Source: a virus
Taxonomy: Duplodnaviria; Caudoviricetes
Direction: 5' to 3' (one strand)
Length of the DNA: 64,000 nt
Virus record (IMG/VR): IMGVR_UViG_2974732567_000001
Coordinates: 1-64,000 of that record
Of this stretch, positions 3,786 to 12,999 are shown piece after piece. The notes below the pieces were generated by a model. The model saw nothing but the letters and a program-made list of their open reading frames with translations. It did no database searches and was not told where the DNA came from. Positions within the stretch are counted from its first letter, which is position 1. Every line of letters starts with the position of its first letter. The translations under genes and the position numbers were made by a program.

Positions 3786-3851
3786 TCATGCATGAAGGGG
3801 TCAAACCTCCGTCTCTTTGAAAAGCGCTCTAATCAACTAAGCTAATGCATG
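3786..3851 (-). ncRNA. tRNA-like element with a truncated anticodon arm
   Basis: Minus strand CATGCAT-TA-GCTT-AGTTGATTA-GAGC-G-CTT-TTCA-AAG-AGAC-GGAGG-TTTGACC-CCTTC-ATGCATG-A. Confidence 0.65.
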
Positions 3852-10106: not shown

Positions 10107-10670
10107 TTAATCTGTTAATAATTCTTTTAATTTTTCTCTTGCCTTGTTAAGGCGTGATTTTACTTGAGACTCTGTGAGTCCAAGTTGCTCTGATATCTGT
10201 TTGTAAGACAGATTTTGTATAGAGCGTAGTTCAATTATATTCTTATACTTCCAACGAAGCCGCGACAAGGCATTATCTAGAGCATCACTTTTCTCTGCGA
10301 AGATAAAATCTTCTTCAGGTGAGTAACTGGCCTGGTTACTCAACTGTAGAGAGTTGGCATCGTCGTCAATCCAATAGTTCGCTTTTTCCTTTTTAGTATG
10401 TCGAATATAATCAATACTAGTATTTATTGCAATAGTTTTCAACCACATCTCAAATGAGATATTGTTTACATAGCTATCTAGCTTACTAAAAGCTTTAGTA
10501 AAAGTAACAGATAATAAATCATCTGCTACATCTTTATTATTTACAATATAATAAATAGTATTATAAATAACTTTACTAAAACGATTATAAAGCTTTGTGA
10601 AGGCAGATTGTTTACCTTCTTTTGCCTGTTTGATCAGTTCGAAAATCTGCTGTTTTTCTAAATCTGTCAT
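10107..10670 (-). CDS. ECF-type sigma-70 factor
   Basis: Region 2 (AFTKLY..DVADDLLSVTFTKAF..FEMWLKTIAINTSIDYIR) and region 4 HTH (LSYKQISEQLGLTESQVKSRLNKAREKLK); likely start MTDLEK. Confidence 0.9.
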   Translation of the reverse strand: MTDLEKQQIFELIKQAKEGKQSAFTKLYNRFSKVIYNTIYYIVNNKDVADDLLSVTFTKAFSKLDSYVNNISFEMWLKTIAINTSIDYIRHTKKEKANYWIDDDANSLQLSNQASYSPEEDFIFAEKSDALDNALSRLRWKYKNIIELRSIQNLSYKQISEQLGLTESQVKSRLNKAREKLKELLTD

Positions 10671-10766
10671 AATTACGGGCATTGTGCTGAACTGATAATC
10701 ATAAAAGTATTTCGACACTATTACATAATTTGAAGTAACTTTTATTTGACCTGTTCAACGATTAGT

Positions 10767-11786: not shown

Positions 11787-12055
11787 TGATATTCGTATTC
11801 TTTAATTTTGTTATTCAATAACTCCCATTTCTCTCTGTCAATATCAGTTGCTTCTACTAAATAGATGATATCACAGGTAGACTTAAATACGCCACGAATA
11901 TAGTTCATTCCTTCTCTATAATGATATTTATTCTTATAGACTCTAGGAACATTAGCATGAAGACGAGTTATTAACTCGGTTTTCATTTTCAATTCAGTTG
12001 ATGCTTTCTCCCATGATTCTGGTAAGTTAGCTCTAATAAAGTTCATTAATCCCAT
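11777..12055 (-). CDS. Hypothetical protein (ends at TAG)
   Basis: 92-aa ORF whose TAG overlaps the start region of the next gene (caATGcgcgTAG). Confidence 0.7.
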   Translation of the reverse strand: MGLMNFIRANLPESWEKASTELKMKTELITRLHANVPRVYKNKYHYREGMNYIRGVFKSTCDIIYLVEATDIDREKWELLNNKIKEYEYQCA

Positions 12056-12092: not shown

Positions 12093-12171
12093 TAGTAAGA
12101 GAGGGATTCGAACCCTCGATACTAGCTTTTGATATTATCTCACCGCTCTTCCATACTGAGCTATTCTTACT
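12093..12171 (-). ncRNA. tRNA-like element with a degenerate anticodon arm, abutting the tmRNA coding piece
   Basis: Minus strand AGTAAGA-ATA-GCTC-AGTATGGAA-GAGC...GAGGG-TTCGAAT-CCCTC-TCTTACT-A; no canonical 5-bp/7-nt anticodon arm. Confidence 0.65.
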
Positions 12172-12317
12172 TCCAGCTTTTTACGACATTAGCTTAGCCG
12201 TTTGGTTTATCTCACGCCGCTAAGCGTGTATAATCCATTACATAACTTGTATTGCCAGTTATCTGCTTATTGACCTATTCTACTTCACATTGTCGCAGTC
12301 AAATGCCTAGATGCCCC
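12172..12317 (-). ncRNA. ssrA: Permuted tmRNA, coding (5') piece
   Basis: Begins GGGGCAT-CTAGGCATTTGAC; resume context ATAACT-GGC; tag ORF 12256-12212 reads GNTSYVMDYTRLAA-TGA; helix GCTTAGC/GCTAAGC encloses the stop; 3' boundary approximate. Confidence 0.85.
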
Positions 12318-12473
12318 ATTTAAAGTAGTACTCTTACAAAATTTAACTTATAGTTTGAGTACTACTCCCGATCTTCCTATCGCTGTTAATGAAAAAACTC
12401 TTAAAGAGAAATCGAAAATTAGCGTGAGATTTCTATACGGGCCTCTTATTATTCTTGCTTATTCCATTTTTTG

Positions 12474-12530
12474 TGGAGCATGAGGGAGTCGAACCCTCGT
12501 CCTAACGACTGATTCATAGACCTAACAGTC
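12474..12530 (-). ncRNA. ssrA: Permuted tmRNA, acceptor (3') piece
   Basis: Minus strand ...GTCGTTAG-GAC-GAGGG-TTCGACT-CCCTC-ATGCTCC-A. It pairs with GGGGCAT to give the G3.U70 and A73 alanine identity; 5' boundary uncertain. Confidence 0.82.
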
Positions 12531-12536
12531 AATTGT

Positions 12537-12566: not shown

Positions 12567-12999
12567 TTTGGTCTTTTTTAAATTATTTTTTTAATGCCTT
12601 GATAACCTGTCTTGGAAGTATAGGATACCTTTCGGCTTCTATACGGCATGATGTCTAGCATCGCACTATTCCAAAAATGCCGACTTGATATCATAAGAAT
12701 GCTATTGCATAATATACTCAAAGAGTATAGAATCTGTATTTATATATTGCGCAATTTATATATACATCCTCATGATCTTAGGCACATGATCAGTGGCACG
12801 TTGTCATAATGTCCTACTCTGGCATCGGTTGTATTACTACACCTTACACTTGTTGTATGCATGTTAATTCATGCATGAGCTGCTTCTTTGGGTACTTAGC
12901 ACACAATGTCGTTACCTCCTATTAGCTACTTTCTCTAGTTAGGTTATATAGTCAATATTGCTATTGCTAAAACACTATACTTGGACTATGCGTGGAGAA

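Follow-up and report, generated by a model that had tools for sequence, protein, structure and literature searches.

The region studied here, in a 64-kb window (the whole stretch of DNA that was analyzed), matches crAss-like phages of the family Suoliviridae by sequence comparison, the nearest relatives being Buchavirus cr113_1 and cr56_1 (84 to 86% identity across the matched parts). The locus holds, on the minus strand, the two pieces of a tmRNA gene and, adjoining the second piece, a tRNA-like element (Table 1). The same arm of the window carries on this strand the RAGATH-20, RAGATH-9, and RAGATH-7 RNAs and one hatchet ribozyme.

Table 1 Features of the tmRNA locus and of the adjoining tRNA-like element in the window
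Feature	Positions	Strand	Details and basis
tmRNA acceptor piece	12474..12533	-	P2 3' strand; T arm, 12498-12482; acceptor 3' strand, 12481-12475 (ATGCTCC); discriminator, A12474; RF04321, ARAGORN
tmRNA intervening segment, 156 nt	12318..12473	-	
Predicted mature tmRNA coding piece, ~146 nt, with GGGGCAT at its 5' end	12172..12317	-	Stem covariation and RF04321; 3' end predicted
tmRNA tag reading frame GNTSYVMDYTRLAA, then stop	12212..12256	-	ARAGORN; related tags in relatives
Conserved 3' block of the tmRNA coding piece	12172..12200	-	Hairpin of AGCT (12194-12191), 12-nt loop AATGTCGTAAAA, and AGCT (12178-12175), then GG(A); invariant in relatives
tRNA-like element (t-element)	12093..12171	-	ARAGORN; Rfam tRNA, 31.5 bits; covariation of the homologous position in relatives
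Acceptor 5' strand AGTAAGA	12165..12171	-	7/7 pairs with 12100-12094; predicted RNase P cut at 12172/12171
D arm: GCTC, loop AGTATGGAA (GG inside), GAGC	12145..12161	-	
Degenerate middle, no valid anticodon arm	12118..12144	-	ARAGORN drawing; 19 nt unaligned by Rfam
T arm GAGGG-TTCGAAT-CCCTC	12101..12117	-	Fits the GGTTCRANYCC motif
Acceptor 3' strand TCTTACT, discriminator A12093, trailer CAA	12090..12100	-	Predicted RNase Z or 3'-trimming site past 12093

A permuted tmRNA upstream of the element

ARAGORN reports a permuted tmRNA in the window, and the Rfam permuted-tmRNA model, RF04321, aligns to positions 12533 to 12212 with 40.3 bits (gathering score, 47); relatives score 50 to 58 bits (50.3 to 58.3). 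The acceptor piece comes first, followed by the spacer and by the coding piece, whose initial GGGGCAT (from 12317) pairs with the ATGCTCC of the acceptor piece, G3.U70 included. This split acceptor stem covaries among relatives (GGGGCTG/CAGCTCC, GGGGCTA/TAGCTCC, and GGGGTAT/ATACTCC), which, together with the conservation of G3.U70, indicates that the upstream partner is a real tmRNA. Related tags are present in relatives, and RefSeq annotates a tmRNA for several of these crAss-like genomes. Judged from its sequence, the window carries a circularly permuted, two-piece tmRNA, a form already known from phages (PMC9004378, PMC11915505).

The intervening segment ranges in relatives from 63 nt to several hundred nucleotides and in some of them holds a tRNA-His gene or an endonuclease ORF. 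The tRNA-His(GTG) of cr114_1 (L005:1570-1642; 63 bits) lies within the segment, and its own processing would cut the spacer. The ORF annotated as an endonuclease, possibly a homing endonuclease, is located on the opposite strand in or beside the segment (cr113_1, L001:1594-2175; cr56_1, L002:1563-2144; cr6_1, L145:319-921) and stretches it to several hundred nucleotides. A group I intron (75 to 96 bits) starts directly past the acceptor-piece T loop, TTCGACT, in cr4_1 (L008:591-880; also L012:3568-3827), where the tmRNA gene would be both permuted and intron interrupted, a combined form absent from the 2025 tmRNA database. In cr10_1 (L144:1255-1280), the segment has a second T-arm-like hairpin, AGAGG-TTCGACT-CCTCT, directly past the acceptor piece. 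RAGATH RNAs are found just upstream of the acceptor piece (window, 12774-12875; L006:1315-1483; L007:1171-1350; L032:1516-1643) and differ in kind by lineage (RAGATH-20, RAGATH-9, or RAGATH-7-associated); RAGATH-9 overlaps the start of the ARAGORN tmRNA call in L006 and L007. These RNAs might define the 5' end of the acceptor piece.

The coding piece runs into a conserved block that reads AACGGCTAAGCTAATGTCGTArAAAGCTGG in 10/10 annotated relatives. In these ten, the block leads into a 5' strand and a variable middle, after which come a T arm, a 3' strand complementary to the 5' strand, and ACAA. A single additional A (12172) separates the conserved GCTGG from the acceptor stem of the element in the window. 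Pairing by eye reveals a compensatory GCC/GGC change in the hairpin of the block at cr4_1-type loci and an analogue of this hairpin, UCAC/GUGA plus GG, in cr10_1. The hairpin loop (window, 12179-12190) is invariant in more than 200 loci, partly through the way the search was constructed; such conservation suggests a putative binding partner. A pseudoknot between the TGTCG of this loop and the CGACA of helix P2 was considered and rejected: relatives have GCAACA or GCAATA in place of GCGACA without a matching change.

Structure of the tRNA-like element

The preliminary description of this DNA placed a tRNA-shaped element about 40 nt past the tag stop. The stop codon TGA occupies 12214-12212 of the minus strand, and the element indeed starts at 12171, 40 nt after it. 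Its other components are also as described: the acceptor stem AGTAAGA/TCTTACT is fully paired, the D arm GCTC/GAGC joins 12161-12158 with 12148-12145, and the T arm is letter identical to that of a second element, at 2302-2359. The anticodon arm, which had been called invalid, is drawn by ARAGORN with 3 pairs and 2 mismatches and with an A instead of U33.

Compared with a decoding tRNA, the element has the acceptor stem, the D arm, and the T arm with its conserved T loop, whereas a degenerate 26-nt region replaces the anticodon and variable arms; a 5-bp anticodon stem with a 7-nt loop carrying U33 is absent from the window element. ARAGORN forces a "tRNA-Leu(taa)" on it, and the Rfam tRNA model, RF00005, reaches 31.5 bits against a gathering score of 29 while skipping the 19-nt anticodon region. 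The gap between the acceptor and D stems is 3 nt (ATA) rather than 2. A strict scan of the 64-kb window that required a 7-bp acceptor stem together with a T loop on a 5-bp T stem containing G53-C61 returned five sites, versus 0.02 per shuffled window: the 12171-12093 element, two others at 3851-3786 and 2359-2302, and two true tRNAs. The element exceeds chance. Single-sequence folding recovers a cloverleaf-like fold, with an energy not better than that of shuffles (z = -1.06); the support for the element comes from covariation in relatives, not from folding energy.

The two further elements, on the minus strand of the early arm at 3786-3851 and 2302-2359, have an anticodon arm that is missing or collapsed. 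In the degenerate middle of the 12171-12093 element, positions 12123-12131 read AAAAGCTAG (AAAAGCTGG in relatives), which nearly repeats the leader AAAAGCTGG found ahead of the acceptor stem and hints at a duplication or composite origin of this cassette type. Two alternative pairings were discarded. A longer fold in which the tag-stop GUGAGA pairs with the acceptor 3' strand was put down to similar sequences, since the acceptor stems of relatives differ. The element is also not the 3' tRNA-like half of a one-piece tmRNA: the partner of its 3' strand is its own 5' strand and not GGGGCAT.

Linkage of the tmRNA and the element in related phages

Whether the two elements are linked in related phages had been suggested as a check. 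An exact-pattern scan of viral and metagenome contigs, supplemented with a variant pattern, yielded 254 stretches with enough downstream sequence, of which 8 chance matches in GC-rich bacterial genes and 1 chimeric stretch were set aside. In all of the remaining ~245 stretches, an acceptor/T-arm minihelix follows the tmRNA 3' block (226 parsed automatically; the rest, which comprise the cr52_1 type, the cr4_1 type, and two singletons, by eye), so that the pair is present in every stretch kept. The element is retained in four subfamilies, Loutivirinae, Uncouvirinae, Bearivirinae, and Boorivirinae. In the last of these, cr10_1 has a different 3' block with the same layout, namely, a 4-bp hairpin, GG, and a tRNA-like element with a collapsed anticodon arm (CTGA-TTGT-TCAG). 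As in t-elements, a tRNA-like unit directly follows another functional RNA of the same strand, and the two are conserved as a pair.

The junction is also regular in its spacing. The 5' strand of the minihelix starts exactly 10 nt past GTCGT, right after GCWGG, in 32/49 unique elements and 9 to 11 nt past it in 39/49, and 34 of the 49 have the trailer ACAA. In several lineages, 6 to ~75 extra nucleotides separate the conserved block from the minihelix. Insertions of 50 to 75 nt with hairpins are found between the two, right after AAAAGC, in the viral contigs L013, L016, L018, L045, L046, and L072.

The downstream side of the junction bears on a different role for the element, in which its main job would be to form, via RNase Z, the 5' end of the downstream early mRNA, the linkage to the tmRNA being secondary. 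In favor of this role, the coding strand of the early arm carries all three tRNA-like elements of the window, the next ATG follows the present element by 37 nt, and the ACAA trailer is conserved. Genes and spacers downstream nevertheless vary by lineage, while the junction with the upstream tmRNA block is constant, and we regard such a primary role as quite unlikely. It would be compatible with formation of the tmRNA 3' end, rather than exclusive of it.

Replacement and covariation of the cassettes

Across the linked stretches, the sequence of the element has been replaced about 20 times. The 63 distinct elements comprise 35 acceptor stems and 22 T stems and represent ~20 cassette types that share no sequence. 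In 36 representatives, canonical pairs make up 94% at 12 stem positions, versus 60% (standard deviation, 2.3; maximum, 68%) in 1,000 shuffles of the 3' strands, the pairs being counted with a geometry-anchored script rather than from a formal covariance-model alignment. Several pair types occur at every stem position, and 35 of the 36 representatives have G53-C61. The presence of ~20 unrelated cassette types between conserved flanks argues for selection on shape and place, not on sequence.

The middle of the cassettes is far less constrained, its length going from an 11-nt linker (cr114_1 type) up to 91 nt, and the anticodon arm is degenerate, collapsed, or absent in most relatives. Of 86 distinct segments, the 10 of the Ile(GAU) type are the only ones, besides the forced call in the window, to which ARAGORN assigns a normal three-letter anticodon; another five are called "tRNA-???" with two-letter anticodons, which correspond to 6-nt loops. 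The Rfam tRNA model gives, by type, 52.8 (Ile), 36.7, 36.0, 31.5 (window), and 22.6 bits and has no match in nine other cassette types tested. Within one homologous lineage, the anticodon arm goes from 5 bp with a 6-nt loop to 3 to 4 bp with a 4-nt loop, and one cassette type keeps an anticodon-type stem, with a 6-nt loop, through compensatory change. What is conserved across the cassettes is the 12-bp acceptor/T stack with its T loop, and the GG of the linker is often kept. The acceptor/T-arm stack and T loop form the minimal recognition unit of RNase P, RNase Z, and the CCA-adding enzyme. By this comparison, the cassettes have lost what the ribosome and the synthetases use and have kept the unit recognized by processing enzymes, which leaves a tRNA-like fold unable to decode, as expected of a t-element.

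A simpler account would be that of a plain phage tRNA gene, or of its decaying remnant, lying beside the tmRNA without any selected role in the formation of its 3' end. The Ile(GAU) cassette is a good tRNA by its score, the types form a graded series from tRNA to stub, and a tRNA-His occurs inside the tmRNA intervening segment of cr114_1, all of which fit this account. Neutral decay, however, would erode the acceptor and T stems and the position as well, and these survive ~20 cassette replacements in four subfamilies, the element being lost from no phage locus. We therefore regard the remnant as rather unlikely.

An identical cassette is found in cr53_1 (Loutivirinae) and cr115_1 (Uncouvirinae), which indicates that cassettes were exchanged between lineages. 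Such exchange would also fit a recombination scar or an attP-like remnant of a tRNA or tmRNA integration site, and tRNA and tmRNA genes are classic integration targets (PMC4383910). On the other hand, the elements are complete, covarying helices and not 3' fragments, and integrase families matched 0/6 of the neighboring ORFs tested. A search of these six ORFs against Pfam and PHROGs returned no integrase or RNase, the sole match being an ECF-type sigma factor (10107-10718). An origin as a scar is highly improbable.

Predicted processing at the junction

We propose that the element acts as a t-element or mascRNA-like signal for processing of the tmRNA, a reading that we hold as probable, though well short of certain. 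The t-element would be cotranscribed with the permuted tmRNA, and the host RNase P would read the acceptor/T-arm stack and the T loop and cut at the 5' border, between 12172 and 12171. This cut would release the ~146-nt coding piece with the 3' end ...AAAAGCUGG(A)-OH, 2 to 3 nt past the small conserved hairpin, which may leave the new end protected. Concurrently, RNase Z, or 3' trimming past A12093, would release the early mRNA that lies downstream, with a small mini-tRNA as a by-product. From structure and position, we infer both cleavages as well as the definition of the mature 3' end by the first of them.

Several observations bear on this proposal. The minus strand from the tag stop to the next ORF (12212-12055) was found to have no intrinsic terminator (GC-rich hairpin plus T run). 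At loci with a real tRNA-Ile as the partner, RNase P has to mature this tRNA and thereby necessarily generates the 3' end of the upstream RNA. The decayed cassettes sit at the very same place, which favors the processing model for them as well. Conversely, the context of the predicted cut (G at -1, A at +1, and a CAA trailer rather than CCA) differs from the optimum known for E. coli RNase P. The enzyme does not need an anticodon-type stem, yet one cassette type keeps such a stem, which counts against the model. The 6 to ~75 extra nucleotides present in several lineages imply that the 3' end would not be located at a fixed distance from the hairpin.

Contigs of relatives assembled from four RNA libraries extend 10 to 29 nt into the element; being assemblies, they cannot show RNA ends, and their reach indicates that precursor RNA or DNA was present in those libraries. 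The breaks of RNA contigs near 12170 coincide with the border at which cassettes differ between strains. Ends of metagenome contigs near the motif were likewise dismissed as RNA ends, since they are breaks in DNA assembly. Separately, in RNA-library contigs of two studies, an Illumina adapter abuts 12474, the acceptor-piece discriminator, with no CCA, and short contigs over 12474-12508 are very deep, up to ~8000 in that bin. One RNA-library contig has the adapter at 12013, inside the next ORF. The adapter-bearing contigs may derive from relatives or from other tmRNAs.

The mini-tRNA itself could also be the functional product. The minihelix might stay on the coding piece as a CCA-tailed cap against exonucleases or act in trans as a decoy for SmpB, EF-Tu, or the CCA-adding enzyme. 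The stubs without an anticodon arm are similar to the tRNA-like domain of tmRNA, the GG retained in many linkers could dock on the T loop, and an RNA of phage DS6A consists of that domain alone and inhibits tmRNA (PMC4131195, PMC11915505). The elements lack G3.U70, however, and their extreme sequence variability, which includes full cloverleaves and a real tRNA-Ile, is better fitted by a generic shape signal than by a specific partner, so that we find this use of the minihelix quite improbable. In a broader form, the mini-tRNA, released or attached, would be a stable, CCA-tailed RNA acting in trans on host translation or trans-translation, for example, by titrating SmpB, EF-Tu, or the CCA-adding enzyme, with lineage-specific versions beside private tmRNAs; we consider this unlikely too.

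Implications

The coding piece of a two-piece tmRNA needs a defined 3' end, and how this end is made is poorly described. If RNase P cleavage at the tRNA-like element is the answer here, phages of an entire family that is very abundant in the human gut form it with the host RNase P and an expendable tRNA mimic. This would be, as far as we could find, the first case of a bacteriophage, and of a tmRNA, relying on the t-element or mascRNA type of 3'-end formation; our literature search found no description of a tRNA-like partner adjoining a phage tmRNA. The same process would explain the "tRNA pseudogenes" and the low-scoring tRNA calls in Crassvirales genomes. In annotation, the element helps to correct the boundaries of the tmRNA, which ARAGORN runs into the element. 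The element and the hatchet and RAGATH RNAs of this arm, taken together, suggest that RNA-level signals cut up the early transcripts of these phages.

Comparison with known systems

The closest likeness is to the t-elements of plant mitochondria, to which, in the case of the Arabidopsis ccmC and nad6 mRNA 3' ends, RNase P cleavage has been attributed (PMC1920247). Like the phage element, those of Arabidopsis ccmC and nad6 and of Brassica orf138 have a nondecoding tRNA-like fold with a GGTTCRANYCC T arm and lie directly downstream of a functional RNA (PMC1920247). In plants, RNase P cuts at the 5' end of the t-element, making the 3' end of the upstream RNA, and RNase Z cuts on the other side, whereas in the phage these cleavages are predicted. 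The phage element further differs in residing in a bacteriophage genome and in that the upstream RNA is a piece of tmRNA and not an mRNA.

In the MALAT1-mascRNA and MEN-beta systems, the 3' end of a noncoding RNA is formed by RNase P, which is recruited by a tRNA mimic lying downstream. That end is protected by a triple helix, a role that we propose for the hairpin in the phage coding piece. These systems are eukaryotic and nuclear and rely on one conserved sequence, while the phages have ~20 interchangeable cassettes, some reduced to the acceptor/T minihelix. Cutting of polycistronic transcripts by tRNA enzymes at tRNA-shaped units also underlies mitochondrial tRNA punctuation and the processing of tRNA-containing bacterial operons. 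There the punctuating units are functional tRNAs, in contrast to the phage units, most of which have no anticodon arm.

Permuted two-piece tmRNAs of the RF04321 type are found in alpha- and betaproteobacteria, cyanobacteria, and some phages (PMC11915505, PMC9004378), and the Rfam model deliberately omits their protruding terminal regions (PMC11915505). The phage locus shares their layout of acceptor piece, spacer, and coding piece, along with G3.U70 and a tag ending in LAA or similar. It differs in that the coding piece is bounded on its 3' side by a tRNA-like element, a feature that we did not find described for RF04321 tmRNAs.

Finally, the tRNA-miRNA units of murid gammaherpesvirus 68 offer a viral parallel, in which nonaminoacylated tRNA-like units let the host tRNA enzymes process a linked small RNA. 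In that virus of a eukaryotic host, the tRNA-like unit lies upstream and RNase Z is the relevant enzyme, whereas the phage element lies downstream of the tmRNA.
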